From positions 10,718-74,717 of the forward strand of contig FR893375.1 of the NCBI GenBank assembly GCA_000433315.1: 64,000 nucleotides of DNA, given 5' to 3'. The position numbers were made by a program, and so were the translations under genes. The DNA is from Firmicutes bacterium CAG:345 (lineage in GTDB: Bacteria > Bacillota_I > Bacilli_A > RFN20 > CAG-288). Below the pieces are notes generated by a model. That model was not told the origin of the DNA. It did not search any database and saw nothing but the letters and a program-made list of their open reading frames with translations. Shown here one piece after another: positions 4,943 to 64,000 of the stretch (the first letter of the stretch is position 1; the number at the start of each line of letters is the position of its first letter).

Positions 4943-6163
4943 TTATTTGCCTTCGTATTGTTTGACAAATTTAGAAACATCGCCATAATTTTGAGCAACA
5001 ATTGTTGGATCTTCAACAACTAAGCGATCTTTCCACCATGCTAATTCTTTATCATTAGAAGCAATAGTAGTTGTGTGGTTAGTTGAATAATAACCAGCTT
5101 TTGATCCCCAAGCATTTTCAAATCCAGCCTTGGAAGTAATATAGCTTACTAATGCACAAGCTGCATAAGGATATTTAGCATTCGCAGCAACCATTGAATA
5201 CATCTTATAGCAAAATCCACCAAAACCATCAACTTTATTGTCACCTAATTCAATAGATGGGAAAGTCAAGTTAGCAACGTTTTCTTTTCCATAACCTTCT
5301 TCATCTTTTAAGTCTTTGATCTTATTATAATTGACTAAAGCAACTGTACCACCTTTAGCTTTTGCGGTATCTTTACAAGCAGTACCATCAGAGCTATGTG
5401 CTTGAGAATTCTTTAAGAATTCAGCAATCCATTTATAACCAATATTCTTATAATCTGATTCAGCAACATAATCTTTATGATAGAAATTCTTATATGCTAC
5501 TGTTAACTTATCAACCCATTCTTTAGAAGTTAACATAGTTAAGAAATTCATATTAACGTTTTCAGTAGTAGGAGTTTTAAATGATGGATTAGCAATATGT
5601 CCTTCATCGCTTGCAGAACCAGCAAGTTGCCAGACATTTGTTAAATAATTAGTTAATGAATGTTCTGTACCTTCACTATTGTAGTTATTGTACATGAAGA
5701 CTTTGTTCAAATAGACTGCTGCCATTGGAACAGTATCATCAGCTGCAACATTTTGTGCTGCTTCTTTTGGTACAAAGTTCAATAAATAATTTGGTGCAAG
5801 CATTTCACTTTGGAGCATATTACCATCTTGTAATAAGACCATATCTGCAATATAACTCTTACTTTGGAAAGCTGTTGACAAATGATTATATAAGTCGGCA
5901 TCACCTTCTTTAGTATTATTAACCTTAATACCTGTTTCTTCTGTAAAGGCTAAAATAGCTTTTTCTAATTGAGAAGAGTTTCCATAAACACTTACGGTAT
6001 TATTTCCTACTTCTTCTTTAGCCTTTGCAACAAGTTCAGCATAACTTAACTTTTCAGCATCTGAAATTGCCTCATTTTTGTTATTATTTCCAGAATTAGG
6101 AGAACAAGCTGCTAACATTGAACAAGCTGCCAATAAAACTGGAACAAATTTTTTCATTTTCAT
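4943..6163 (-). CDS. ABC transporter substrate-binding lipoprotein (family-1 SBP; Fe3+/thiamine/polyamine type, Mycoplasma p37-like).
   Basis: Lipoprotein signal MKMKKFVPVLLAACSMLAACSP. VSVYGNSSQLEKAILAFTEETGIKV resembles the N-terminus of family-1 SBPs. Heads an operon with a fused permease and a MalK-like ATPase. Confidence 0.65.
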   Translation of the reverse strand: MKMKKFVPVLLAACSMLAACSPNSGNNNKNEAISDAEKLSYAELVAKAKEEVGNNTVSVYGNSSQLEKAILAFTEETGIKVNNTKEGDADLYNHLSTAFQSKSYIADMVLLQDGNMLQSEMLAPNYLLNFVPKEAAQNVAADDTVPMAAVYLNKVFMYNNYNSEGTEHSLTNYLTNVWQLAGSASDEGHIANPSFKTPTTENVNMNFLTMLTSKEWVDKLTVAYKNFYHKDYVAESDYKNIGYKWIAEFLKNSQAHSSDGTACKDTAKAKGGTVALVNYNKIKDLKDEEGYGKENVANLTFPSIELGDNKVDGFGGFCYKMYSMVAANAKYPYAACALVSYITSKAGFENAWGSKAGYYSTNHTTTIASNDKELAWWKDRLVVEDPTIVAQNYGDVSKFVKQYEGK

Positions 6164-7213: not shown

Positions 7214-7946
7214 TCCTGGACTTTTCCAAGAAAGCAATAAAAAATATTCCATTACAAAAAGAATGATAATCTTCTTGATAGATGGAATATTAACTATCGG
7301 TACAATCTTCGCTTTATTTTTCGGAATATGCCAATTTATCATTCCTTCTTTAGCACATAATGAAATTTATAAATTAAATTCTTGGTATCAAGAAATTTGT
7401 ATTTCAGAAAATGTTCCTTATACAGAAGGAACATATGGAATTTACAAAGTTGATTCTAAAAAATATATATTGCAGCTTTCCGAACAAGGTATAGAAGAAG
7501 ATAAATTAATGGATACTTATCTTCAGAAAGTAGATGAGTTAGATGATAAATTAGCTAAAGTTGATGGTTACACTGAAACATATAGAAAATTCAATAGCAT
7601 TTATCTTTTGAATTTTATAAGTTGCATTTGCGTAAGTACTTTAATTTTTGAATTAATCATTCCTCTTTGCAATAAAAGACATAAAACTATTGGCATGATG
7701 ATTTTCAAATCAAATTTAGTAAATAGAGATAATATCGTTGCAAGTAACTCTAAAATTCTTTTGCGTTTCTTATTTATACAAATTATTGAATTAATTGCAG
7801 TATATCTTCTTATAAATTGGATAGGTATCCTTTTTGAAACATTAATTACTTTAGTATTAATATCTTTTACTGGAAATAGATATGCTTTGCACGATTTAGT
7901 TACAAATCTTCATGTTGAGGAACAATCAAAAAGCTTTACTGAATAA
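7206..7946 (+). CDS. RDD-family membrane protein with an inserted extracytoplasmic domain.
   Basis: KRMIIFLIDGILT (RDD signature), TM, a ~120-aa insert, TM segments, then KRHKTIGMMIFK. Same architecture as 58501..59637 and 59630..60670. Confidence 0.6.
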   Translation: MDNPGLFQESNKKYSITKRMIIFLIDGILTIGTIFALFFGICQFIIPSLAHNEIYKLNSWYQEICISENVPYTEGTYGIYKVDSKKYILQLSEQGIEEDKLMDTYLQKVDELDDKLAKVDGYTETYRKFNSIYLLNFISCICVSTLIFELIIPLCNKRHKTIGMMIFKSNLVNRDNIVASNSKILLRFLFIQIIELIAVYLLINWIGILFETLITLVLISFTGNRYALHDLVTNLHVEEQSKSFTE

Positions 7947-7995
7947 AGTGAACATATTTAATATGTTCACTTTTTTATAATAGAAAGAGAAAATT

Positions 7996-8649: not shown

Positions 8650-8758
8650 ACATTTTATTTATAAAAGTAAAAGTTGTTTCTATTGTTTAGCTATTTTATG
8701 CAATAAAAAAACTATTGTTATCAATATTAGTTATACTGAAAGCAATAGTTTTTATTTT

Positions 8759-11300: not shown

Positions 11301-11618
11301 ATGAAAACAAATAACATAGCAATGAAACAAATACTAATGGAAGCAGAAAAAGAAATCAATAAATTTTATAATTCTAAAAATTTTCTAGCTGCCATAATTA
11401 CTGGCGAAGAAAAAGAATTATCTTTTGATTTGTATTCCAAAGAAGATTTAAAAACTCAAAAACTTAAGAGCATCCAGTTAGTAAAAGAATACAAGCCGCT
11501 TTGGTTAATTTATGAAGAAGAAAATAACATATATATTTTTTTTAAAAATAGCAATGGAAATATTGAAAATATAACATTAGAAGATATTCCTCATTGCATA
11601 AATTATTCACGCATTTAA
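11301..11618 (+). CDS. Hypothetical protein (105 aa).
   Basis: ORF with a good RBS (aaaagaagg, 7 nt upstream of the ATG at 11301). The longer upstream extension in the ORF track has no RBS and reads through AT-rich promoter DNA. Confidence 0.5.
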   Translation: MKTNNIAMKQILMEAEKEINKFYNSKNFLAAIITGEEKELSFDLYSKEDLKTQKLKSIQLVKEYKPLWLIYEEENNIYIFFKNSNGNIENITLEDIPHCINYSRI

Positions 11619-11653
11619 AAAGATAGTTGGCAAGTTCCAACTATCTTTCTTTT

Positions 11654-19466: not shown

Positions 19467-19503
19467 TAAATAAAATAGTTGGAAATTTAGTTATGTAAAT
19501 TTC
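19467..19503. terminator. Bidirectional rho-independent terminator.
   Basis: agttggaaattt-agttatgt-aaatttccaact, a 12-bp stem followed by tttttt. Confidence 0.75.
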
Positions 19504-19511
19504 CAACTTTT

Positions 19512-20054
19512 TTAAATCTCTACAGAGCCTTCTGAAACTCGCATTGGATCAATCGGATTAAAATGATCGTAAAATAATATTCCGTTCAAATGATCAAATT
19601 CATGTTGCAAAGCAATAGCTAAATATCCTTTAGCTTCAACCACAACATCTTTTCCTTGTAAAATATCATAAGCAGCCATTTTAATTCGATAAGGACGTTC
19701 TACTAAGCCTTTATGAACACCATCAACTGATAAGCATCCTTCTCCACCACGAAGATAACATTTTTTAGCAGAAATAGATTTTAATCTAGGATTAACCAAA
19801 ACATATTCATAATGTTTTCCATCAGTATCATCAAGATAAATTGCAAACATTTTTATAGCTTTACCAATTTGAGGTGCAGCTAAACCAACACCAGCACGAA
19901 TATCATGTGCAGCAGCAAATTCATCATCTTGAGATTCTTTTAAATGCTGTATCATCTGTTTTCCTAGGTCTATATATTCTTTATCTAATGGCATAGGAAT
20001 ATCTATACATTTTTCATGTAATACTTTTTCCGTATCCTTATAAATTTTTAACAT
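19512..20054 (-). CDS. def: Peptide deformylase.
   Basis: GVGLAAPQIG, EGCLSV, HEFDHLNG motifs. Start at MLKIYKD with a GGAGG RBS (the longer track ORF would encode the RBS). Confidence 0.9.
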   Translation of the reverse strand: MLKIYKDTEKVLHEKCIDIPMPLDKEYIDLGKQMIQHLKESQDDEFAAAHDIRAGVGLAAPQIGKAIKMFAIYLDDTDGKHYEYVLVNPRLKSISAKKCYLRGGEGCLSVDGVHKGLVERPYRIKMAAYDILQGKDVVVEAKGYLAIALQHEFDHLNGILFYDHFNPIDPMRVSEGSVEI

Positions 20055-20153
20055 AACTAACCTCCACAATGTATTTTAACATACTTTATAACATTTTTCT
20101 TTATGGAAAAAGAAAAGATAAAATCATAAATTAAATTTATCATTGCAATCAAA

Positions 20154-20175
20154 AAGGATGTAAAAAATTACATCC
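20154..20175 (-). terminator. Rho-independent terminator of the yjcZ-like gene.
   Basis: Minus-strand gggatgta-atttttt-acatcc followed by ttttt. Confidence 0.6.
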
Positions 20176-20186
20176 CTATTCATATT

Positions 20187-20354
20187 TTAATAACCGGCAC
20201 CGCACCTGTTATTTCCCCAGCCACAGCCGATAATAACAAGTAAAATAAAAATGACAAGAATTATAGCAAACCATCCACCAATACCATTATTTGTATTAGT
20301 TGGATATGCATAACCTGTGCCACCATAAGGATAATTTTGTCCGTAATAGTACAT
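20187..20354 (-). CDS. yjcZ: YjcZ-like small sporulation-family protein (55 aa). Not in the ORF track because it is under 60 aa.
   Basis: Minus-strand AGGAGGTG-n5-ATG. MYYYGQNYPYGGTGYAYPTNTNNGIGGWFAIILVIFILLVIIGCGWGNNRCGAGY: a Gly/Tyr-rich N-terminus plus a single TM, as in the Bacillus YjcZ family. Own terminator. Confidence 0.6.
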   Translation of the reverse strand: MYYYGQNYPYGGTGYAYPTNTNNGIGGWFAIILVIFILLVIIGCGWGNNRCGAGY

Positions 20355-27351: not shown

Positions 27352-27391
27352 TATTTCAGTTATTTAACTAAAAAAATGTTAAAATATAAAT

Positions 27392-36102: not shown

Positions 36103-36783
36103 ATGATAAACGATATATTCCAAAATTTAGATAATAGTTATCAAGACTTGGAATTATCACCAGAATTTAAAGAAAATTTAAATAAAACGGTTCTTAAAGC
36201 ATATGCAGAAAGAACCGTTTTTCCTTCCATAGAAAATTTATTTAAAGCTTTAAATTTAACACCTTTAAACAAAGTAAAAGTTGTTATCTTAGGCCAAGAC
36301 CCCTATCAAACTAAAGGTTTTGCTTCTGGACTAGCTTTTGGTGTAAATCCTGGTGTAAAAATTCCAAAAAGTCTCAAAAATATTTTGATCGAATTAAATA
36401 ATGACTTAAATTTATCAATTGATACATCAATAGGACATTCATTAAAAGGATGGGCTGAACAAGGAGTACTATTGCTGAACACTATTTTAACAGTTGAAGA
36501 AGGAATATCTTTATCTCATAAAGATTTTAAATGGCAAGATTTCACAGATGCAATCATAAAAAAAATAAATGGTCTAAATCACAAGGTAGTATTTATTTTA
36601 TGGGGGAAAAACGCTCAAGAAAAGGAAAAAATTATCAATTCTAAAAATATCATAATAAAAAGTGCACACCCTTCTCCACTTTCTGCACATAATGGTTTTT
36701 TCGGTAGTCATCCATTTTCTAAAACAAATAAAATACTTCTAGAAAATAAATTAACTCCTATCGATTGGTCAAAAATCGATTGA
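36103..36783 (+). CDS. ung: Uracil-DNA glycosylase.
   Basis: VVILGQDPYQ, GLAFGV, LLLNTILTVEEG, HPSPLSA motifs. Start at MINDIF (227 aa). Confidence 0.9.
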   Translation: MINDIFQNLDNSYQDLELSPEFKENLNKTVLKAYAERTVFPSIENLFKALNLTPLNKVKVVILGQDPYQTKGFASGLAFGVNPGVKIPKSLKNILIELNNDLNLSIDTSIGHSLKGWAEQGVLLLNTILTVEEGISLSHKDFKWQDFTDAIIKKINGLNHKVVFILWGKNAQEKEKIINSKNIIIKSAHPSPLSAHNGFFGSHPFSKTNKILLENKLTPIDWSKID

Positions 36784-39493
36784 TTTTTTCCTTGATACTA
36801 TATTTTTTATTACCTGTTTCTAAAACATCAGTTATTTTCATATCTATGAATGGAAAACATGAAAAGCTTATAAAAAAGCTTAAAAGAAGAGTCAATAATG
36901 AAGAAATAATACCCGCTTTATAATCTGTATTGCTCATAACATTAGACAAAATATTTTCCAAAGAAATTTGCATAATATAAACTGTAAAAAAAGAAATAAC
37001 ACCTGGTATTAAAGAATAAAAAACAGCTAAAGCATGATATTCATTTTTTATATCATGCTTTTTTATTCCAAGTAAATTTTTCATCATAATGACATTTTTA
37101 TCCTCTATAACAACTAATAAAATTGAAAAAGCCAATAAAAAGGTAGCTATTAAGCATGATAATCCTGAAAAAAAATAAAGTACATTTTTAATTAAATTTA
37201 TTATCGGCCGTATACTATTTTCAATTTTTTCACCACAAATTTGAAAATAATAATTTGGATAATTCTTTTGAAATTCATTTTTTATATTATTTATATTTGC
37301 ATTTTCATCATAAGTCAAAATTATTTTAGAAATATTGCATGCCTCCTCATTTAATAACTTTGTAATTCCAAAAATGGTCCAGAATTCTGCATTTTGATAA
37401 ATTTTATTTTTTTCATCCATTATAATTTCCGCTACTTCCAAATCTCCAGTTTTAAAAATATGATAGTACTTTTCTTTTTTATAAATTGTTTTAGCTAAAT
37501 AAGCATAATGTATTTTATTTGATAAATTTAAATTTATTCCTAATTTTTTAGCAAGAGATGATGATATTTTTATTCTTCCTTTTAAATCTTCTGAATCAGA
37601 AATAGTTTCTAGCAAAAAATTATTTTTATTAGAACTCGAATAAATATCACCTCCAGCGATATTATCATCTATTTTCATATTTAAAGAAGTCAATATCGGC
37701 GTAGTAGAAATATCATATTTATCAATCAATTTATTGATTTTATCTTTTCCATAAGCAACATAAAAAGGACGATCAAAGCCAGCATAAATTCCTTCATCTC
37801 CATATTGATACATTCCTGTTGTCAATGAATATTTTTGTAATCCTGCCTTACTTTTGCCTATTCTTATAACTTCTTCTAAATCAATTCTCTCACTAGTTCT
37901 TTCATAAAAACATATTCGACAAGGAAATGTTTCATCTAGAATATAAGGATTATAATTTTTAAATCTATTATCATTTAATAATTTAAAAAGAAACTCCTCC
38001 TTTTTATCTTCGCTGATTAAGCAATAACTTTTTCTTTTATATGTCCAAGGATATTTATCTGTGGACTCTAAATTATCACTATAAAGCAATTCCATTTCAT
38101 CAATTAAAAAATGTTTCAAAAAATTTCCACTACAATGAACCAGTGATATATTTTCTCCTAAAAATATTTTTTTAACTCTAATTAAATATTCAAAATGATA
38201 ATTCCATTCAATATTGGAAAACTGAAAATATAAAAATATATTATTATCTTCACAGACATTTTGTATTTTCTTGTTTTTAAAAATATCTTTGTATTGTCTT
38301 TCATTTAAAATCAAGTATATTTCGTCATACTTCATATTATTATCTTTTACAGAAACATTTGCCTCATAAGGTAATTTAAAATTTTTCAAAAGTGATGTAT
38401 CTAATGTCGGAATATTTACTTCCTTATCATTTATCAATAAATTAACTTTGTTCTTATTAGGAAAATTACTTTCAAAATTAATATCAAAATAAAAACCTTT
38501 TTCTAAAATATCATCTTTATATATCCAATATAATTTATCTATTTCTGAATCCAAAATATTTTTCTTTTCATCATTTAAGGAAACGTAGTTTTTCTTCTCG
38601 ACAGAAATAGAATTCTTTACTATATTGCTAGTCAATGACTTTTCAATATCTTTTGATACACCAATAGTTAAAAGATTAGCAATTCCAAAAGTAACTAAAG
38701 CTACTATAATAGTAAGCATAGTACACATCGTTCTAAATTTATTATAAATGATTTTTCGAATACTCTTTTTTGTATACCTTAATTTTATATTTTCTTTTTC
38801 TGAAATTATTAATCTTTTCTTCTCGACAATTTGATTTTCTTTTATTTTAATTGCTTTTCCATCGACAAAATTAATTATTCCAGATTTAGAGCATATTTCA
38901 TCTTTTTGATGAGTTATTACAATGACTAAACTTCTTTGAGCATAATTTTCTAAGATTAAATTTACTTTTTCTCTAAGTTTTTTATTCAAACCATTTAATG
39001 GTTCATCCAAAAAATAAATATAACTCTTTTTTATTAAACATCTTGCAATATTTACTCTCGCTTTTTCCCCTCCAGAAATTTTATTTATAGTCTTATTTCT
39101 TATTTTGAATATTTCTAATTCCTTTAATATTTTATATATTATTTTTCTTCTTTCTTTTTTCTTTTTAATATTGTTTTGCAGAATAAAATCTAAATTGTCA
39201 TAAATAGTTAGTTCTTTTTCCATCTCAGCATTCTGAAACGAAATAGACAATTTATTTTTTCTAATTTCATCTAGTTCTTTCTCATTCATTTTATTAATTT
39301 CTTTTGAAAATAACTTTATTGAACCTTCATATTTTTTTATTTTTCCTAATAAAACATTTAAAAAAGTACTTTTGCCAGAACCTGAATGACCAATTATATA
39401 ATATAATCCTGTATTACTAAATTTCAGATTAACATTATCTAATGCTTTAACACCATTAGAATAAATCACCGTTAAATTTTCACACTCTAACAT
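36758..39493 (-). CDS. Fused ABC transporter: N-terminal ATPase plus a C-terminal MacB/FtsX-type permease with a large extracytoplasmic domain (911 aa).
   Basis: GHSGSGKSTF, ISGGEKARVNIAR, IYFLDEPLNGLN, ITHQ. About 690 aa downstream with a TM, a large loop, and C-terminal FtsX-like TM helices. Confidence 0.75.
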   Translation of the reverse strand: MLECENLTVIYSNGVKALDNVNLKFSNTGLYYIIGHSGSGKSTFLNVLLGKIKKYEGSIKLFSKEINKMNEKELDEIRKNKLSISFQNAEMEKELTIYDNLDFILQNNIKKKKERRKIIYKILKELEIFKIRNKTINKISGGEKARVNIARCLIKKSYIYFLDEPLNGLNKKLREKVNLILENYAQRSLVIVITHQKDEICSKSGIINFVDGKAIKIKENQIVEKKRLIISEKENIKLRYTKKSIRKIIYNKFRTMCTMLTIIVALVTFGIANLLTIGVSKDIEKSLTSNIVKNSISVEKKNYVSLNDEKKNILDSEIDKLYWIYKDDILEKGFYFDINFESNFPNKNKVNLLINDKEVNIPTLDTSLLKNFKLPYEANVSVKDNNMKYDEIYLILNERQYKDIFKNKKIQNVCEDNNIFLYFQFSNIEWNYHFEYLIRVKKIFLGENISLVHCSGNFLKHFLIDEMELLYSDNLESTDKYPWTYKRKSYCLISEDKKEEFLFKLLNDNRFKNYNPYILDETFPCRICFYERTSERIDLEEVIRIGKSKAGLQKYSLTTGMYQYGDEGIYAGFDRPFYVAYGKDKINKLIDKYDISTTPILTSLNMKIDDNIAGGDIYSSSNKNNFLLETISDSEDLKGRIKISSSLAKKLGINLNLSNKIHYAYLAKTIYKKEKYYHIFKTGDLEVAEIIMDEKNKIYQNAEFWTIFGITKLLNEEACNISKIILTYDENANINNIKNEFQKNYPNYYFQICGEKIENSIRPIINLIKNVLYFFSGLSCLIATFLLAFSILLVVIEDKNVIMMKNLLGIKKHDIKNEYHALAVFYSLIPGVISFFTVYIMQISLENILSNVMSNTDYKAGIISSLLTLLLSFFISFSCFPFIDMKITDVLETGNKKYSIKEKINRFLTNR

Positions 39494-41454
39494 ACTTCAT
39501 CCGCCAAACTTAACACTAGATTTTTCTTTTTTAATAAATATAAAACTAATGAAGAAGCTATTAATGATAAAGTAAAAATGACAATTAGCATAATAATATT
39601 ATTAATATTTATAAAAGTAAAATCTAAAAAAGTAATAAATCCATATTTTTTTATCAAACAATTAAATATAACCACTTCTATCAATTTAAAAAGGAAAAAT
39701 AATAAAAAAGAAATAAAAGAGTAAATAAATGATAAAGAATAATAAATCATCTCAAAATTATTTTTCTTAAGATGAAAAGTTATAAACAGAGCTAAAATCT
39801 TTTTTTGTTCTTCGTATATTGTACCTATAGTAAAAAGTTCTAATAAAAAAGCCCCTATGGCAATTAAAATCAAAAAAATTTCCATTATCGAAAGAAAACT
39901 ATTTACAATACTCTCGCTATTTTCAATATAAGATAATGCTGTAGAAGTAACTTCAAATGAATCATTTAAATATTTTTTTAATTCAGTAGGTTCATCAGTT
40001 ACAATTAATGCTTTATAAGACTTTACAAAATCATCTTCTGTAGCATTTTTTATTCTATCGATAATTGTAACTTTCTTTTCAAATATCTCACTTGCATTAA
40101 TTAAATTATAGGTACTTAATTTTCGATACATATTTTCATAAGAATAATAGACTTTTCCACTATTGAGTCCTATTATTTCATCCACTATCCCAACAATAAT
40201 ATAATTTTGATTAAACATCACAGTGTCAAAACATTTTTGACTATTTTTTTCCGAAATAATTTGAACCGCTTTATTAATTTCTATCTTCTTCCCTAACAAT
40301 TCATCTAAATTCATTTTCAATTCAGAAGATAGAACATTATTTACTAAAATTTCATTATCATGGAGAATATTTCTACCACAAAGTAATTTAAAATTATTTT
40401 CTCCTATTATTGGTTCAAAATTAGCATCGATATATTCTGTTTCATCAGAATTTAAAACTTTAATAGTATTTCCTAAAATATAGTCAAAAGAAATATATAG
40501 TTCATATTTTTTCTCCAATTCACTTGGAAAAGTCTTTTTAACTAATGATAAATTGTCATCTAATTTTTCATTTTCAATTTTTGATACATGACAAACATTA
40601 TAATTTGCAAATGATTTTGCTGCATCAAAAAATATATTTCTTGTATTGCTCATAACATCGAGAAATAAGCTCATCATTGAAAAAACTAAAGTTAAAAAGA
40701 ACATTGAAATCAAGCTTCTCCCTAATTTACTTTTCAAAAAAATACATCCAATTTTTAAAGAATACTTTATTTTTATATTTTTTTCTTCAATTTCTTCTTT
40801 AAAAGATATAGATTTCTTTTCAAAATTTTCTTTTTCAAATTTTAATGTCAAATTTTTATTTTCTAATAAATAAACCTTATCTCCATATGCATAGGCAAAA
40901 TTTTCTCTATGCGTAACCATAATGACAAGTATATTTAAAGAGAGTTCCTTAAAAAGGGAAATAAAATACTTGGCATTTTCTTCATCTAAAGAACCCGTAG
41001 GTTCATCTAATAACAAAACATCTGGATTTACTATTAATGCTCTAGCAATTTGAACTCTTGCTAGTTGTCCTCCAGATAATTCATCAATATTTCGATCTTT
41101 CAAATCATAAATTCCAATTTTCTTTAAAATGCACTCGGATTTTTCTGATATTGTTTTTTTATCAATCCCTTTTGCAATTAAAGGAATCTTAATATTATCA
41201 ATAACACTTATATTTTTTATAAAAGTTGGAGATTGAAAAACTAAACTTACAATTACATTTTCCGGCATTATTTGGATTTTTCCCTTTTGCATTTTTATAT
41301 CTTTATCTATTAAATATAAAAGAGTAGATTTTCCAGTTCCAGAACGACCTAAAATAATAACAAACTCTCCTGCTTTTGCACTAAAATTTAAATTTCTAAA
41401 GATAGTTTGTTTATTATAAGAATAGTTTAGATTTCTAATAAAAATAGTTGCCAC
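39487..41454 (-). CDS. Fused ABC transporter: N-terminal ATPase plus a C-terminal membrane domain (655 aa), paralogue of the downstream gene. GTG start.
   Basis: GRSGTGKSTL, LSGGQLARVQIARAL, LLLDEPTGSLD, VTHR. Multiple C-terminal TM helices. The start codon GTG (plus-strand cac 41452..41454) lies inside an inverted repeat. Confidence 0.7.
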   Translation of the reverse strand: MATIFIRNLNYSYNKQTIFRNLNFSAKAGEFVIILGRSGTGKSTLLYLIDKDIKMQKGKIQIMPENVIVSLVFQSPTFIKNISVIDNIKIPLIAKGIDKKTISEKSECILKKIGIYDLKDRNIDELSGGQLARVQIARALIVNPDVLLLDEPTGSLDEENAKYFISLFKELSLNILVIMVTHRENFAYAYGDKVYLLENKNLTLKFEKENFEKKSISFKEEIEEKNIKIKYSLKIGCIFLKSKLGRSLISMFFLTLVFSMMSLFLDVMSNTRNIFFDAAKSFANYNVCHVSKIENEKLDDNLSLVKKTFPSELEKKYELYISFDYILGNTIKVLNSDETEYIDANFEPIIGENNFKLLCGRNILHDNEILVNNVLSSELKMNLDELLGKKIEINKAVQIISEKNSQKCFDTVMFNQNYIIVGIVDEIIGLNSGKVYYSYENMYRKLSTYNLINASEIFEKKVTIIDRIKNATEDDFVKSYKALIVTDEPTELKKYLNDSFEVTSTALSYIENSESIVNSFLSIMEIFLILIAIGAFLLELFTIGTIYEEQKKILALFITFHLKKNNFEMIYYSLSFIYSFISFLLFFLFKLIEVVIFNCLIKKYGFITFLDFTFININNIIMLIVIFTLSLIASSLVLYLLKKKNLVLSLADEVC

Positions 41455-41503
41455 ACTTTATATAAACAATTCTACTTGTTTTTTTGAGTGTGACAACTAT
41501 TTT
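41441..41503 (-). terminator. Long inverted repeat after atpC. Candidate atp operon terminator or translational control element that overlaps the start codon of the next gene.
   Basis: Plus-strand aaaatagttgccacac (41441..41456) is the reverse complement of gtgtgacaactatttt (41488..41503), 15 of 16 matches. A 31-nt loop, followed by UUUUUAUU on the minus-strand mRNA. Confidence 0.45.
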
Positions 41504-41917
41504 AAATTCTTTTTTTTCCTGGATAGTTTAATAAATTTAATTTTGCTCTTTGTTCAGAAATTTCACTTTGTATATCTGAAATACTTCTTCGATTATTTGC
41601 TGATTTTAAACGTTTTTCTGCATTTTCCAATAGTTCAGTAACAACTTTATAATCAATTTGATTTTTATAAAATGTTGCATCAGCAATAATTGTAACAGAA
41701 TCTGTTTTATTCTCTATATTCATTACACCATTTGTAATAACTAAATCATAAATATGCATCGAAGTTGTGTAATGAAAAACAGCAGGAACAAGAGGTGTAA
41801 TTAAATCTTCATGCCCTGGTAAAATTTCTAACCAACCAGTACTGCTTTTGACATTAAGTTTATCTACTCCATCTCTATCAATTACAATTCCTAATGGAGT
41901 AACTACTTGCAAATGCA

Positions 41918-41918
<1 letters not shown>
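41502..41918 (-). CDS. atpC: F0F1 ATP synthase epsilon subunit.
   Basis: 138 aa. Follows atpD with an ATGA overlap. Beta-sandwich plus helical hairpin typical of epsilon. Confidence 0.85.
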
Positions 41919-44213
<2,295 letters not shown>

Positions 44214-44214
44214 A

Positions 44215-45732
44215 TTATTCTTTCTTGCTCAAATATAATTTTTGAAATTCGAGCATTGCTAATTTAAAATCTTCAATTAGTTTATTGTCAAATATCATCT
44301 TTTCTTTTAACCTTAAAACCAATTCTTCATAATTTGTATGAATATACGCTTTCATTTCTTCTAAATAGGTAGAAACTTCATTAATTTCAATAGCATTTAG
44401 ATAGCCATACTTAACATTAAATAATTCAAGAATTTCATCTATTGTTGTCAAAGGATGATATTGAGATTGCTTTAATACTTCCATGCACCTTCTACCATGA
44501 TTTAAAACTTTTTGAGTTTCCGCATCAAGATCCGATCCAAATTGAGCAAAAGCAGCCATATCTTGATAATTAGCTAAATCGATTTTTAATGATCCAGCCA
44601 CTTGTTTCATAGCCTTGGTTTGAACTGCTGATCCAACACGAGAAACTGATAAACCTGAATCGATCGCCGGTCTTTGTCCAGCATTAAATAATTCGCTCAT
44701 CAAAAAGATTTGACCATCAGTAATGGAAATAATATTTGTTGGAATATAAGCAGAAATATCACCTGCTTGTGTCTCAACTATTGGTAAAGCTGTAATAGAA
44801 CCACCACCATGTTCCTTGTTCAATCTACAAGATCTTTCCAAAAGTCTTGAATGTAAATAGAAAACATCGCCAGGATAAGCTTCACGACCAGGAGATCTCT
44901 TCAATAATAAAGATAAAGCACGATAGCTAACAGCATGTTTAGATAAGTCATCATAAACAATTAAGACATCTTTTCCTTGTTCCATAAAATACTCAGCTAT
45001 AGCACAACCTGCATAAGGAGCAATATATAACATAGGAGCTTGTTCAGAAGCAGAAGCAGATAAAACTATTGTATAGTCCATTGCACCTTCTCTTCTAAGT
45101 TTTTCAGTTAATCTGGCAACTGTAGAATTTTTTTGTCCAATAGCAACATAAATACAAATCATATTTTTATTTTTTTGATTTATTATTGTATCTATTGCCA
45201 AAGCAGTTTTTCCAGTTTGTCTATCACCAATAATTAATTCTCTTTGTCCTCTACCGATAGGAATCATAGCATCGATAGCTTTAATTCCTGTTTCTAAAGG
45301 AACATCAACGCTTTTTCTTGTCATGACACCTGGAGCTATTTTTTCAACAGGACGAAATTCTGTAGTTTTAATCTCTCCATTTCCGTCAATCGGTTGTCCT
45401 AAAGCATTTATAACACGTCCAAGAAGAGCCTCACCAACAGGAACTGAAAATACTTGTTTCGTTCTTTTAACAATATCGCCTTCTTTAATAAAATCAGCAT
45501 TACCAAACAAAACAGCACCTACAGAATCCTCATTAAGATTCATAACTAGACCATATACATCATGGGGGAATATAAGTAATTCACCATTCATAGCATTTGA
45601 AAGACCATAAATAGTAGCAATACCATCGCCAAAAGTAACAACAGTTCCTACATCATTATCTTCTAATTTACTATCATAATCGTTGATTTGTGCTTTTATA
45701 AGAGCACTGATTTCTGATGGTTTGATTTCCAT
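44215..45732 (-). CDS. atpA: F0F1 ATP synthase alpha subunit.
   Basis: GDRQTGKT (P-loop), 505 aa. Confidence 0.95.
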
Positions 45733-46275
45733 TTATTCGCCCTCCTCAACTTGTGTTTTTAAAGTATCATTCATAGCAATTAAAGAACTATCAAATAGGC
45801 GATCATCAATAAATATTTTTACACCGCCAATCAAATTCTTTTGCAATATAAATTTTGATTTAACTTCAGCTTTTAACTTTTTACTTATAGCCGAAGTCAA
45901 TTTGTTTTTCATTTCATTTGATAATTCAAAAGCTGTATAACAAATTCCGCATTTAATGCCTTCAATATTATCAGCTTCTTTTACCGTTTCTTCTAAAATA
46001 TCAACTAAATAAAAGCTTCTTTTGTTATCGAGAATGATTTTCAAATAATTACATAATTTATTAGAAATTATTTTTCTATCTTTTAATTCATTTAAAATAT
46101 TAATTTTTTTAAATTTATCAAAAGAAGGTGAAATCAAAAATTTTTTGAAGACAATATCATTATTTAAATATTCTAAAAAATCTTCAATTTCTTTTTTTTC
46201 TTCAGATATATGTTCTCGTTCCATTGCTGTAAAATAAGCTGCAGCATAGCGTGAAGAAGCTTTCAATCTATTCAT
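45733..46275 (-). CDS. atpH: F0F1 ATP synthase delta subunit.
   Basis: 180 aa. Position between atpF and atpA. OSCP-like. Confidence 0.8.
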   Translation of the reverse strand: MNRLKASSRYAAAYFTAMEREHISEEKKEIEDFLEYLNNDIVFKKFLISPSFDKFKKINILNELKDRKIISNKLCNYLKIILDNKRSFYLVDILEETVKEADNIEGIKCGICYTAFELSNEMKNKLTSAISKKLKAEVKSKFILQKNLIGGVKIFIDDRLFDSSLIAMNDTLKTQVEEGE

Positions 46276-46817
46276 TATTTTTCTTCCTCATTTAATGAAT
46301 CAATAAAATTATTTAAAACTTTTTCGTTATCATCTTCATTGATTTCACGTTGCAAAATCTTTTCAGATGCTTGAAAAGCAACATCAATGATTTCTCTTTT
46401 TATATCATCTTTTGCTCTTCTTCGAGATTCTTCAATGTCTTTATCAGCAGCAATTTTTAAATTGCGTACTTCTTCTTTAGTAGCATTGATAATTTTATTC
46501 TTTTCATTTTCTGCAGTTTTTTGTGCTTCAACAATAATATCTTGCGCTTTAATTTTAGCAACTTTAATTTCTTCTTGTGATTTAGAAAGATACTCATTTG
46601 CTGACAATCTTTTTTCTTCAGCTTCCTTAATATTTGCTTCGATATGATCTTGTCTTGTTGTGATTATTTTTCTAACAGGTTTAAACAAAAGTATAAAAAA
46701 CGCTGCAACCAAAACTAACATTGCAATAAATTGCACTAAAAATGGTTGCCAACCACTTGGAAAAAGCTTATCTATAATGTCCTGAGCACCAGGAAATAAA
46801 GATTGTAAAACTAACAT
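46275..46817 (-). CDS. atpF: F0F1 ATP synthase B subunit.
   Basis: A single N-terminal TM followed by a long charged helix. Position in the operon. Confidence 0.8.
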   Translation of the reverse strand: MLVLQSLFPGAQDIIDKLFPSGWQPFLVQFIAMLVLVAAFFILLFKPVRKIITTRQDHIEANIKEAEEKRLSANEYLSKSQEEIKVAKIKAQDIIVEAQKTAENEKNKIINATKEEVRNLKIAADKDIEESRRRAKDDIKREIIDVAFQASEKILQREINEDDNEKVLNNFIDSLNEEEK

Positions 46818-46826
46818 AAGACAATA

Positions 46827-47072
46827 TTACATTACACCGAAAACAATAAGTAAAATAGCAATTAAAAGACCATATAAAGCAGATGTTTCTGTTAATGCAC
46901 AACCAAGAAGCATAGTAGAACGAATTTTCTTATAAGCATCTGGATTACGACCAACAGAACTAACCGCACTAGCTGCACACATACCTTCTGAAATACCAGG
47001 TCCGACAGCAGCAAGAACTGCAATACCAGCACCAATAGCAGCAAGTCCTCTTACCAAACTATTTGCATCCAT
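46827..47072 (-). CDS. atpE: F0F1 ATP synthase C subunit.
   Basis: 81-aa hairpin proteolipid with GLAAIGAGIAVLAAVGPGI. Glu in the second helix. Confidence 0.85.
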   Translation of the reverse strand: MDANSLVRGLAAIGAGIAVLAAVGPGISEGMCAASAVSSVGRNPDAYKKIRSTMLLGCALTETSALYGLLIAILLIVFGVM

Positions 47073-47097
47073 ATATAAACCTCCTTAGATACCATAA

Positions 47098-47838
47098 TTA
47101 ATCTTTTGCAACAACTGCAACTTTTTGTTCCAAATCTTCAGCATCTGGAACCTCATTACTAATAAACAACATTGATAATAATACAAAAACTGTTGTTTGA
47201 ATAAAACCAGAGAATAAATCAAAATACATATGAAGAATCGGAGTAATAAAAGGAGCTATAAAGAAAGACAATCCTCCGAAAATCATAGCGCTTAAGTTCT
47301 CTAATAAAGAATAAACCAAATATAACATAATCCAACCAGCTAAAGCGTTGGCGAATAAACGCAAAGATAAAGATAAAAGTGGAGCAAAAAGAGAGAAAAT
47401 ACCTACAATAGGAATTGGGAAAACAAATTGCTTAAAATATTTCCATTTATTGTAATATAGCGATGTGATATTAATCATTAAAAATGTCACTAATGCTAAC
47501 ATAAATGGAATCCAATAGAAAGTTAAAGGAGAAGGAAGACCAGAAACGCCTATCAAAAATGATCCAAAAATATATGCCGCTAAAAAGCCAAAATATGGAC
47601 TCAAAAATTTAAATTGTTTTCCCATATTTTCTTCAACTAATGAATCTATATATCCAACATAAGTTTCTGCAATAAAAACAATTCCCTTAGGTCTTTTTAA
47701 AGGATCGGTAAAGTGGGCTTTAATTTTAACAACAATGCAAAAAATTAATAATATGCACATAAGAATTATGCTGCTATAAATTTCGCCTGGTAATCCTTCA
47801 GTTGCATGGACCCCTAAACTAAACAATATACTACTCAT
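47098..47838 (-). CDS. atpB: F0F1 ATP synthase A subunit.
   Basis: Polytopic. Conserved LSLSLRLFANALAG motif (essential Arg). Start at MSSILF with RBS aaggatgtggg. Confidence 0.85.
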   Translation of the reverse strand: MSSILFSLGVHATEGLPGEIYSSIILMCILLIFCIVVKIKAHFTDPLKRPKGIVFIAETYVGYIDSLVEENMGKQFKFLSPYFGFLAAYIFGSFLIGVSGLPSPLTFYWIPFMLALVTFLMINITSLYYNKWKYFKQFVFPIPIVGIFSLFAPLLSLSLRLFANALAGWIMLYLVYSLLENLSAMIFGGLSFFIAPFITPILHMYFDLFSGFIQTTVFVLLSMLFISNEVPDAEDLEQKVAVVAKD

Positions 47839-48235
47839 TTCCCACATCCTTGATAAATGGCAAGTATAACCCAATTCTATAAACTATATAAGAAATACCT
47901 ATCGCTATAGGGTTTATAACTCTTATTGAATAGTACCATAAAATTAAAGATAAGGCAATTGGAATTAAAAGAATAATATATCGCACAAAAAAATCAATTC
48001 TAAAAATGCCTTTAGATTTTGTTGCCAAAACCCCATCTACTGATTTTATAAATAAAAAATAATTTAAATTTGCAAAAGGAATAGCAGTCAAAACTCCTAA
48101 TGGCCAATCAATATTCCCATTAAAGAATAAAAAGAATAATGAGAAAAACAAAACAAGCAAAAACAAATTTCCGAGTAAAATCACTCGATATTCACTTTTG
48201 ATGCTATAGAACCAGTTACCAAAACTTTTTGCCAT
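47831..48235 (-). CDS. atpI: ATP synthase protein I-like small membrane protein.
   Basis: 134 aa, 3-4 TM, first gene of the operon. Assigned by position only. Confidence 0.45.
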   Translation of the reverse strand: MAKSFGNWFYSIKSEYRVILLGNLFLLVLFFSLFFLFFNGNIDWPLGVLTAIPFANLNYFLFIKSVDGVLATKSKGIFRIDFFVRYIILLIPIALSLILWYYSIRVINPIAIGISYIVYRIGLYLPFIKDVGNE

Positions 48236-48302
48236 AATTTTATTATACTCAAAAAGTATTTTTCAAAAAGACAAAAAACTGACAAAAATCAATTTATGAC
48301 AA

Positions 48303-49328: not shown

Positions 49329-49343
49329 TTAAGAAAATATAGC

Positions 49344-49370
49344 TGGTACTGCAAAGTATCAGTTTTTTTA
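49344..49370 (+). terminator. Rho-independent terminator of the tRNA operon.
   Basis: ctggtact-gcaa-agtatcag (8 bp including one G-U, GNRA loop) followed by ttttttt. Confidence 0.75.
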
Positions 49371-49673
49371 TTATCACGCTTTTCTGAATGCCATATTTTC
49401 AAAAATGACAAATAAATTCCTATTTAAATTCTAAAATATGTAGAATTAAAAAATAATAGGTTGTATAATTTGTACATAGTTAATGATTACGAAAAAATTA
49501 GCTATATGAATGCAATTGGATACTATTTTTTGTATATATGCAACTTCTTATAACTAATCTACATTTTTTTATTTAAATCATAATAAATAAATGTAGATTA
49601 GATAATTAAATTATATTATTTATTCTAAGAAAATCTTTTATATGTATATGTTGCTTTATGTAAAGGAGAAAAA

Positions 49674-51628: not shown

Positions 51629-51753
51629 ATGTCCCTCATTTTCAAAAAAAATTATAAACTTTATCTATTAATAAGTATATATTTATTATCTATTATTCAA
51701 AAAAAGTGTTGAGTAATAGAATAATATTTCTATCTTTCAACACAATTTATAAA

Positions 51754-53469: not shown

Positions 53470-53665
53470 AAATAAATTATACTTCTTATTTTTTGGTTAA
53501 ACAATAAAAAAGAATTTTGTTCTTTTTTGTCACATTTTTTGAAAAAACATATTTTCAGCAAAGACAAAATTTTTTGTCAAAATTTAATTTTTGTATACAT
53601 AGCAAGCTATCTAAGAATTACATTCTATGTTAATATATTAAAGATATATAGAAACGGAGGAACTG

Positions 53666-58415: not shown

Positions 58416-58500
58416 ATTTACCTCTTTAAATTATATGAGGAATATGCAAAAACACGAATAAAAACTTTAAAAAAAAGAAAAAAATGTTATAATCAATGCA

Positions 58501-60670: not shown

Positions 60671-60791
60671 AAACAACTTTTAAAAAATACAAAAATGTTA
60701 CTTTAAAATTAGTTATTAATAATTATGTTATTTACTTCACATTCAAAAATTCTCATGTTATAATTATTAAGAACCTTAGGAGGTTGGATTT

Positions 60792-63118: not shown

Positions 63119-63142
63119 CAAAAAAGGGGTGAACATCACCCC
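63119..63142 (-). terminator. Rho-independent terminator downstream of the ECF S-component gene.
   Basis: Minus-strand ggggtga-tgt-tcacccc followed by ttttttt. Confidence 0.75.
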
Positions 63143-63167: not shown

Positions 63168-63812
63168 TTAACCTATAATTAATTGAACTTGCTTCGTCAT
63201 TTTTTGTAATGGAATATATAAAGCTCCACCAATAACTAATACAGCGGCTAAACTAATTGCATTATATGGAAGGTTATAATATACAAAAGAATAATAGAAT
63301 GGTTGCATATTATCAGGAGCATATTCTCCAAAAAGAAAAGCACCAGAAATAGAAGATGATAGATATTTAATTACAAATCCAAGAATTGCAGCAACGAAGA
63401 ATGACCAAGGTTTATTCTTATAATATAACTTTGAAAATAAACCACCCATTAATCCTATACCAGCAAAAGGAATAATATAATCAAGAAATACAGATGCCCA
63501 ATGATAAACAACACCATCCATCATAAGATTGATTAAACTATAACAAGCACCTACAACAAAACCATAAACAGGTCCTAAATAAAGTCCAGAAATAACTATT
63601 CCTAGCCCTTCAAGTGAGATAGAACCACCCTGTGGCATTTTTGGTAACCCATAAGTTAAAAAAGATAGTACAAAACTTAATGCCACAAATAAAGCAGACA
63701 TTGATAATTTTCTAATTTGTCGTCTAACTTTGTAACCATCAACACTTTTTGAATTAGGATGCTTAACAATCTTTTTTTCTTCTAATTCACTTTGCAAATT
63801 CTCTGTATCCAT
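63168..63812 (-). CDS. thiT: ECF transporter substrate-specific S component, probably thiamine-specific (ThiT-like) given the upstream TPP riboswitch.
   Basis: About 6 TM helices and of S-component size. Strong RBS aaggagg. TPP riboswitch immediately upstream. The EcfAA'T module is encoded at 31631..34207. Confidence 0.65.
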   Translation of the reverse strand: MDTENLQSELEEKKIVKHPNSKSVDGYKVRRQIRKLSMSALFVALSFVLSFLTYGLPKMPQGGSISLEGLGIVISGLYLGPVYGFVVGACYSLINLMMDGVVYHWASVFLDYIIPFAGIGLMGGLFSKLYYKNKPWSFFVAAILGFVIKYLSSSISGAFLFGEYAPDNMQPFYYSFVYYNLPYNAISLAAVLVIGGALYIPLQKMTKQVQLIIG

Positions 63813-63854
63813 TAAAAAACCTCCTTGAAAGCAAAGAGGCAAACAAAACAAAAT

Positions 63855-63945
63855 TATGTTATCTCTTCGCTAGCATTATCTAGATCAGATACGGTCGATT
63901 CAACATCAGAATCCTCTCAGCCTTATGTTTAAAGCTCCCATAAAA
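63855..63945 (-). promoter_or_regulatory. TPP (thiamine pyrophosphate) riboswitch.
   Basis: Minus-strand GGGAGC...GGCUGAGAGGAUUCUGAUGUUGAAUCGACCGUAUCUGAUCUAGAUAAUGCUAGCGAAGAGAU matches the THI-box consensus (CUGAGA ... ACCnnnnnCUGAUCUGGAUAAUGCCAGCGnAGGGA). Confidence 0.85.
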
Positions 63946-64000
63946 AGTATAATTTTTTACTCAATATTTTTCAAGATAATTTTATAATCCGTGCTTATCT

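Follow-up and report, generated by a model that had tools for sequence, protein, structure and literature searches.

The 64,000 nucleotides (nt) analyzed here, taken from contig FR893375.1 of Firmicutes bacterium CAG:345 and referred to below as the window, raise the question of what is done by a long hairpin that bridges the end of an ATP synthase operon and the beginning of an ATP-binding cassette (ABC) transporter gene. The gene atpC is the last of the complete atp cluster and is followed on the same strand, after a gap of 47 nt, by a gene encoding a fused ABC protein of 655 amino acids (aa). All coordinates are those of the window, and the hairpin, atpC and both ABC genes are read on its minus strand; the features are collected in Table 1. 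The hairpin is taken to be an intrinsic (Rho-independent) terminator of the atp operon, a reading that structural modelling makes probable, if far from certain, and it buries the start codon of the ABC gene more strongly than any other start codon of the window is buried. As judged from these models, the ABC genes are probably served by a promoter nested between the arms, by ribosomes that open the stem, or by both.

The original prediction described an inverted repeat of 16 bp with 15 matched positions. A repeat search recovered it and extended it to arms of 17 nt (41441-41457 and 41487-41503) that are 94% complementary and 29 nt apart. On the minus strand, the order is GGAAAAAAAAGAAUU UAA AAUAGUUGUCACACU, 29 nt, AGU GUG GCAACUAUUUU UAUUAGAAAU. 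The sole mismatch of the arms, G at 41451 against T at 41493 (minus strand), forms a G·U wobble in the RNA of that strand, and the stem comprises 17 bp, namely 16 Watson-Crick pairs and one G·U. The same position is a C·A mismatch in the plus-strand RNA, which is why the isolated hairpin is more stable as minus-strand RNA (-24.8 kcal/mol) than as plus-strand RNA (-22.1 kcal/mol). The 5' arm had been said to contain the atpC UAA; the two do overlap, but only the two A's lie within the arm (UAA, 41504-41502). The location of the GUG start of the ABC gene in the 3' arm was borne out (41454-41452, within 41441-41457).

Folding of the RNA, as proposed with the original prediction, gave -25.8 kcal/mol for a minus-strand context of 96 nt, against -9.0 ± 2.4 kcal/mol for shuffled sequences (z = -7.0), and none of the 200 shuffles matched this value. 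The core GUUGUCACACU/AGUGUGGCAAC by itself contributes -18.1 kcal/mol, and the hairpin is present in both the minimum free energy (MFE) and the centroid folds of a context of 341 nt. A competing antiterminator, 41624-41635 with 41495-41506, was considered and found to be weak; it is missing from both of these folds. The inverted-repeat structure is real, selected and located on the transcribed strand, and a chance origin is unlikely.

This stable, G+C-containing stem-loop is formed by the transcribed strand, begins in the stop codon of the gene with which the atp transcription unit ends and has a U-rich tract directly 3' of the stem. It is because of this tract that the earlier suggestion of a terminator for the atp operon is considered plausible. 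The tract UAUUUUUAUU codes for Ile-Phe-Ile in the first beta-strand of the ABC protein, and its first six bases can in addition base-pair with the 5' arm at the A-rich foot. In a scan for hairpins followed by U-tracts, the structure was recorded at 41444-41500 on the minus strand (-22.1 kcal/mol), with the tail TTTTATTAGA 3' of the extended stem. In the mechanism envisaged, the A-rich foot, the 11-bp G+C-containing core and the U-rich tail would fold (about -25 kcal/mol) once the polymerase has copied ABC codons 1-5, and most atp transcripts would end at about 41433-41441. With a gap of only 47 nt, any terminator must overlap the next gene, and for this reason the 3' arm and the U-tract are made of the ABC start codon and the U-rich first codons.

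The window contains a number of similar structures. Six inverted repeats with arms of 16 nt or more, no more than one mismatch and loops of 3-45 nt were found, compared with zero to two in each of ten Markov shuffles, and all six are located at or around gene or tRNA ends. Several compact hairpins with U-tracts begin 0-4 nt from a stop codon (7946 vs 7944-7946; 11619 vs 11616-11618; 19508 vs 19512-19514), and in several of them the U-tract pairs with an A-rich foot, the same architecture as that of the atpC hairpin. The terminators at 1835-1858, 7946-7972, 8707-8753, 11619-11648 and 19477-19508 lie 0-18 nt from stops, and several are bidirectional between convergent genes. Among these neighbours, the atpC hairpin stands out by its size and strength (-22 to -25 vs about -10 to -14 kcal/mol), its 29-nt interior and the fact that its 3' half is the beginning of the next gene. 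The d'Aubenton-Carafa score, calibrated on E. coli and computed by hand, was negative for the atpC hairpin and also for clear terminators at convergent gene ends; it was dropped because it does not discriminate in an AT-rich genome.

In the summary of Johnson et al. 2020 given in PMC7858274, terminators a few nt from stop codons are a Firmicute pattern, ascribed to an RNA polymerase that outruns the ribosome. Overlap with the atpC stop is therefore normal here, and the coupling that the original prediction called unusual is less so than claimed, since terminator-like hairpins that touch stops are the norm in the window and a known Firmicute trait. With the B. subtilis terminators of that summary, the atpC hairpin shares a hairpin plus U-tract within a few nt of the last stop of an operon, an A-tract foot that makes it formally bidirectional and the company of several sister structures in the window. 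It differs from them in having arms that are 29 nt apart rather than 3-8 nt and a 3' arm and U-tract that are coding sequence and start codon of a co-directional gene, and termination is in its case a prediction.

The start codon that is paired in the 3' arm appears to be the correct one. The ABC reading frame contains an in-frame TAA at 41460-41458, two codons before the GTG, and its next ATG is codon 55, past the Walker A motif GRSGTGKST (residues 36-44). Many ABC-ATPase profiles align from residues 1-6 of the protein to profile positions 1-5. For these three reasons, the GTG at 41454 is the only canonical start, in agreement with the original prediction: an alternative start codon was sought and no usable one was found, and with a later one the Walker A motif would be lost. 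All six database variants of the protein that were examined in full, out of about 100, start with MATIFIRNL, as automated gene calls. No GGAGG was found as a Shine-Dalgarno sequence upstream of this gene, compared with a clear GGAGG-type site at most genes of the window, which fits a gene that is not meant for translation from polycistronic RNA.

The energy needed to open positions -12 to +12 around a start codon was computed in a context of -70/+50 for 48 starts of the window. Opening of the 655-aa ABC start, where the initiation codon and its flanks are paired in a stable local structure, costs 24.2 kcal/mol, the highest value of the set (the next is 12.7 and the median about 6.5 kcal/mol). 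The model thus supports the sequestration of the initiation codon that had been predicted, and on RNA with both arms the ABC start should be essentially silent. On atp RNA that reads through the terminator, the start would be locked in the stem, and the ABC pair would consequently be insulated from the strongly expressed atp operon both transcriptionally and translationally. The occlusion may also merely follow from the 47-nt gap. The ABC genes are regarded as a pair that forms one unit downstream of the hairpin because the ATG of the second gene, encoding 911 aa, overlaps the end of the first by 7 nt.

The original prediction made translation of the ABC gene depend on read-through or on an alternative transcript, and two reliefs of the block can be computed. 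One of them gives the alternative transcript a concrete form that had been overlooked, namely a sigma-70-like promoter candidate between the arms that matches the consensus in 10 of 12 positions. Its -35 hexamer TTGTCA (41496-41491) lies in the 5' arm and its -10 hexamer TAGAAT (41474-41469) in the apical loop; the spacing falls within the 16-18 nt of sigma-70/sigma-A promoters, and the -10 box has A at position 2 and T at position 6. Transcription is predicted to start at about 41461-41463, and the resulting RNA would have a leader of 7-9 nt that lacks the 5' arm. For RNA starting at 41461 or 41463, the computed opening cost of the ABC start is 2.3-2.7 kcal/mol, among the lowest of the window. 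The candidate has the position and orientation required for the ABC gene. Counting both strands, the window has 61 promoter matches as good as this one. Non-coding DNA, 9% of the window, has 14 of them, an enrichment of about threefold, and most of these 14 stand just before gene starts. Since such matches concentrate there, this one is considered meaningful, although it is no proof.

The other relief comes from the ribosome that finishes atpC. The UAA (41504-41502) is located at the foot of the 5' arm (41503-41487), within the path of the upstream ribosome. When a ribosome footprint reaching 13 nt past the UAA was forced to be single-stranded, the stem was gone and the cost fell from 23.6 to 8.1 kcal/mol. 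Because of this position of the UAA, a terminating ribosome would unzip the stem, and in the model the occlusion is therefore not as absolute as had been proposed. The ABC genes would accordingly have two routes to expression, either from a sigma-A-type promoter between the arms, giving a transcript without the 5' arm and with an open start, or from read-through RNA on which ribosomes terminating at the atpC UAA briefly unzip the stem. The promoter is the likelier of the two.

A more far-reaching proposal, considered unlikely, is that of a three-in-one module in which the 5' arm of the terminator doubles as the -35 box, the loop as the -10 box and the 3' arm as the start codon of the next unit. 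RNA from upstream would be terminated and untranslatable, RNA started inside would be open, and ABC expression would be inversely coupled to ATP synthase transcription because polymerases on the atp operon would traverse the nested promoter and halt some 20 nt beyond its start, a form of promoter occlusion. A low-quality scaffold of another strain (L038, around 2925-2950) carries T41493A, which turns the -35-like box into the consensus TTGACA and costs the stem its G·U pair, together with C41486A and a gap of 10 N at a distance of 8 nt. This may be a natural variant with a stronger promoter and a weaker hairpin, or else a sequencing or assembly error; if it is no assembly error, T41493A would be a natural up-mutation of the proposed module.

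Several points weigh against the reading as a terminator with a nested promoter. The 29 nt between the arms are far beyond the 3-8 nt typical of terminators, and a simple terminator scan of the window did not list the hairpin because it takes loops of 3-8 nt only. The mini-stem in the interior nominally shortens the loop to 6 nt, yet a natural single-nucleotide polymorphism (SNP; C41478A in strain L040), located in the mini-stem and in the promoter spacer, breaks its only G-C pair, for which reason the mini-stem is probably not essential. Promoter-like matches overall are as frequent as in shuffled sequences (67 vs 66 expected), and the -35 box may be a by-product of the complementarity to GTGGCAAC. 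The predicted transcript would have a leader of 7-9 nt, a GUG start and no Shine-Dalgarno sequence, and by the standards of E. coli a short leader of this kind combined with GUG initiates poorly. The protein searches gave no intermediate relatives in which covariation of the arms would show. The 655-aa ABC protein retrieved same-species hits (nearly all with 97-100% identity, one with 90%) and then one full-length homologue at 30% identity, and atpC retrieved same-species sequences only. A scan of genome contigs with the ABC protein gave only unrelated ABC ATPases (23-40% identity). In a set of 19 strain sequences, taken from contigs encoding the protein and supplemented by a metagenome pattern scan, the hairpin is identical in 18 and the remaining one has a SNP in the loop. 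This identity is uninformative since only about 1.2% of the sites segregate (93 of 7968 in the surrounding 8 kb among 11 strain sequences), with about 0.7 changes expected in 63 nt.

The hairpin might instead be primarily a translational-coupling device, with atp and ABC genes co-transcribed, the start freed only by a ribosome finishing atpC and ABC output set at a fixed small fraction of that of epsilon. The atpC stop at the foot of the 5' arm fits this idea, as do the 8.1 kcal/mol obtained with 13-nt coverage, a normal value for the window, and the spacing of +47 nt, which resembles the +52 nt of E. coli rpmI-rplT (PMC12548453); starts without a Shine-Dalgarno sequence are also common among downstream genes that depend on coupling. 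However, a MacB-like transporter has no functional reason to be linked to ATP synthase, the only distant homologue locus has the ABC pair behind a gene for formate-tetrahydrofolate ligase instead, and coupling would have no use for the U-tract and A-tract foot, which are features of terminators. The terminators abutting stop codons suggest that transcription is faster than translation, in which case the hairpin would form and terminate before the ribosome arrives. The stem would also refold fast once the ribosome is released. Coupling as the primary function is thus possible but doubtful. That transcription continues and the duplex stabilizes or processes the 3' end, either by blocking 3' exonucleases or as a site cut by RNase III, leaving stable atp and unstable ABC mRNA, is improbable. 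The large interior is atypical of terminators, and by the standard of this genome the duplex is exceptionally stable (-22 to -25 kcal/mol, against -10 to -14 kcal/mol for the compact hairpins at gene ends). The canonical U-tract directly after the core speaks against processing, a stem of 17 bp is below the typical length of RNase III substrates, and for the sister structures at convergent gene ends a terminator is the simplest explanation.

The repeat has also been weighed as an element that acts at the DNA level (a repressor operator, the end of a mobile element or a recombination site) or as a chance palindrome, all of which is very improbable. The arm contains a -35-like hexamer, so a protein bound there could in principle control the nested promoter, and the lower G+C content of the ABC genes (22-25%, against 32-34% for the atp genes and about 28% for the genome) might indicate a later insertion. 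The half-sites are, however, 46 bp apart from centre to centre, which is not typical of an operator, the mismatch is a G·U on the transcribed strand, and a chance origin is unlikely. Only the two arms themselves match within 3 mismatches in the 64 kb, as opposed to the further copies of a dispersed repeat, miniature inverted-repeat transposable element or uptake sequence. The motif ATAGTTG(G), present in three terminator arms, was likewise rejected as a repeat family or uptake sequence (ATAGTTG is observed 8 times vs 5.8 expected, with no extra copies). An integron attC site was rejected by eye: the arms have the order GTT...AAC, opposite to RYYYAAC...GTTRRRY, the order of the attC core sites. 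The probability that the 5' arm and the A-rich interior form a preQ1-I-like riboswitch aptamer controlling the ABC genes is practically negligible. A cmscan match to RF00522 at 41470-41503 on the minus strand (17.5 bits, E = 0.16-0.5) stays well below the gathering score of 39 and is no better than the dozen chance matches of the hairpin to microRNA precursors; its P1 has only 3 bp and the aptamer would start inside the atpC stop codon. The family of the downstream gene is not a known preQ1 responder. At the gathering score, Rfam has no family at the hairpin, and a permissive threshold gave only chance-level hairpin matches.

The terminator thus remains the favoured reading, and its combination with an occluded start can be compared with other systems. 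The atpHA pair of E. coli is a case of coupling by RNA unfolding. The atpC-ABC pair resembles such systems in that its downstream start lies in a stem whose other strand is reachable by ribosomes ending the upstream gene, and a spacing of +47 nt would leave room for a second ribosome to bind as long as the first keeps the stem open. Further examples are rpmI-rplT of E. coli, genes VII-IX of phage f1 and the coat-lysis pair of MS2, and for rpmI-rplT a ribosome engaged in translation keeps an inhibitory structure from forming and leaves the downstream site accessible (PMC12548453). The pairs of these systems are functionally related and co-transcribed, whereas atpC and the ABC gene are unrelated and their stem bears the U-tract of a terminator. 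In the expression platforms of riboswitches and attenuators, one helix can terminate transcription and sequester a ribosome-binding site. The atpC hairpin likewise joins a terminator tail and an initiation region in its 3' strand, but it is located between genes instead of in a 5' leader, and Rfam and fold searches for a sensor domain, aptamer or antiterminator found none. Partial terminators and internal promoters within operons reportedly set expression ratios, according to Lalanne et al. 2018. A terminator between co-directional genes and a promoter would decouple expression here in a similar way, except that the candidate promoter is nested inside the hairpin and not downstream of it.

Table 1. 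Coordinates of the hairpin, its flanking genes and related features of the window
Feature	Position	Strand	Remarks
atpC, F1 epsilon subunit, 138 aa	41502-41918	minus	TIGR01216 71.4 bits (cut-off 67.25), PF02823
atp cluster atpI-B-E-F-H-A-G-D-C	41502-48235	minus	I, a, (c), b, delta, alpha, gamma, beta, epsilon; atpC last
Fused ABC gene, 655 aa, GTG start	39487-41454	minus	N-terminal ABC ATPase (PF00005) and C-terminal membrane part, MacB-like layout
Second fused ABC/FtsX-type gene, 911 aa	36758-39493	minus	PF00005 105.8 bits; FtsX marginal, 25.1 bits vs cut-off 25.5
5' arm AAAAUAGUUGUCACACU	41487-41503	minus	Starts with last two bases of atpC UAA; A-rich foot AAAAUA, then G+C-containing core
Hairpin interior, 29 nt	41458-41486	minus	5x6 internal loop, mini-stem, 6-nt apical loop GUAGAA
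Mini-stem, 6 bp	41481-41476 / 41469-41464	minus	Five A-U pairs and one C-G pair
In-frame TAA closing the ABC reading frame upstream	41460-41458	minus	Inside hairpin interior
3' arm AGUGUGGCAACUAUUUU	41441-41457	minus	Carries GUG start 41454-41452 and ABC codons 2-5
U-rich tract UAUUUUUAUU	41437-41446	minus	3' of stem core (...GGCAAC); 8 U in 10
Sigma-70-like promoter candidate TTGTCA-16-TAGAAT	41469-41496	minus	10/12 consensus match
Long inverted repeats	1815-1867, 7942-7976, 19471-19514, 41441-41503, two versions at 49551-49604		
Compact terminators (hairpin and U-tract)	1835-1858, 7946-7972, 8707-8753, 11619-11648, 19477-19508, 49342-49363, 51706-51743, 63126-63142		At convergent or co-directional gene ends
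Leaderless-type -10 boxes	48242-48247 (-), 53476-53481 (-), 58488-58493 (+), 27380-27385 (+)		TATAAT or TGnTAAAAT/TGnTATAAT
Starts of leaderless-like genes	48235, 53469, 58501, 27392		48235: atpI-like, weak match below Pfam cut-off

The sequences of other strains and of the distant homologue contain further observations on the ABC genes. The membrane topology of the 655-aa protein was predicted from its sequence. In the homologue locus (L037), the same ABC gene pair begins 32 nt after the formate-tetrahydrofolate ligase gene, and a 9-bp hairpin at 4966-5003 (CACTATTTA/TAAATAGTG), without Shine-Dalgarno sequence and without U-tract, ends exactly at the ATG; with two cases in all, this gene pair may carry a start hairpin as a recurrent feature. 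One strain contig (L047, 9897-12789) has the identical hairpin and GTG start, and its ABC gene is fused in frame from about residue 212 to GmrSD_N (DUF262) and followed by a RiboL-PSP HEPN gene, which reflects either the insertion of a defence-type module into the transporter gene or a chimeric assembly. In another strain (L006, 4962-7696), the 911-aa gene is split into open reading frames (ORFs) of 780 and 109 aa, possibly as a frameshift or pseudogene, and internal deletions are present in two variants of the 655-aa protein (P0101 and P0102). These variants hint that some strains may do without the transporter. Direct repeats AACTAT(T/C)(T/C)TTA, spaced by about 21 nt, occur at 41397-41449 in the first 25 ABC codons; as a separate DNA element they were rejected, as they mirror the similarity of the peptides TIFIRNLNY and TIFRNLNF in the first two beta-strands.

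Other parts of the window are of interest with respect to initiation and termination. A leaderless-mRNA pattern, in which a -10 box ends 6-7 nt before the ATG and a Shine-Dalgarno sequence is missing, was noted for four other genes (Table 1), and to judge from these sequences the lineage may use leaderless initiation fairly often. A leaderless GUG start for the ABC gene was rejected: the hexamers at the right distance are TTTATA/GTTTAT, and TAGAAT ends 14 nt before the GUG. An inverted repeat at 60712-60774 around an 11/12 promoter match was also rejected as a second promoter inside a hairpin (fold z = 0.36 vs shuffles). The 3' ends of ung (plus strand) and of the 911-aa ABC gene (minus strand) overlap by 26 nt (36758-36783), and the only terminator-like hairpin of ung, 37030-37060 (AAGCATGATAT...ATATCATGCTT then TTTTATT), comes 250 nt later, within the ABC coding sequence and in antisense orientation to it. 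At 36187-36218, a 9-bp hairpin with U-tract (ACGGTTCTT...AAGAACCGT TTTT), usable on both strands, is located 86 nt past the stop of a yebC-family gene, within the 5' portion of the ung ORF, which runs in the same direction; here, too, a terminator may sit inside the gene that follows. Before the peptide deformylase gene (19512-20069, minus strand) lies a region of 366 nt with a very stable structure (-24.1 kcal/mol), after which comes a compact terminator-like hairpin (GGGATGTAA...TTACATCCT TTTT); these elements are at 20155-20176 and 20251-20323 on the minus strand. No Rfam family matched the stable structure, which could be a leader, an attenuator or a small RNA. Downstream of a thiamine pyrophosphate (TPP) riboswitch at 63845-63951 (minus strand, 56.4 bits) come a terminator-like hairpin (63819-63840) and the gene 63168-63851.

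For annotation, this locus suggests that genes on the same strand and 47 nt apart should not be assumed to form one operon. Each of the component mechanisms is already known and no long-standing question is opened; their nesting is neat and is put forward as a candidate only. The source lineage belongs to the common Bacilli of the human gut and has a compact genome, 91% of which is coding. If the favoured reading is correct, this gene-dense genome would let the opening codons of a gene double as terminator for the operon before it, and the transporter would thereby be insulated from one of the strongest operons of the cell. An uncultured lineage of gut Bacilli would then join the organisms with terminators that touch stop codons, the signature of transcription that outruns translation.

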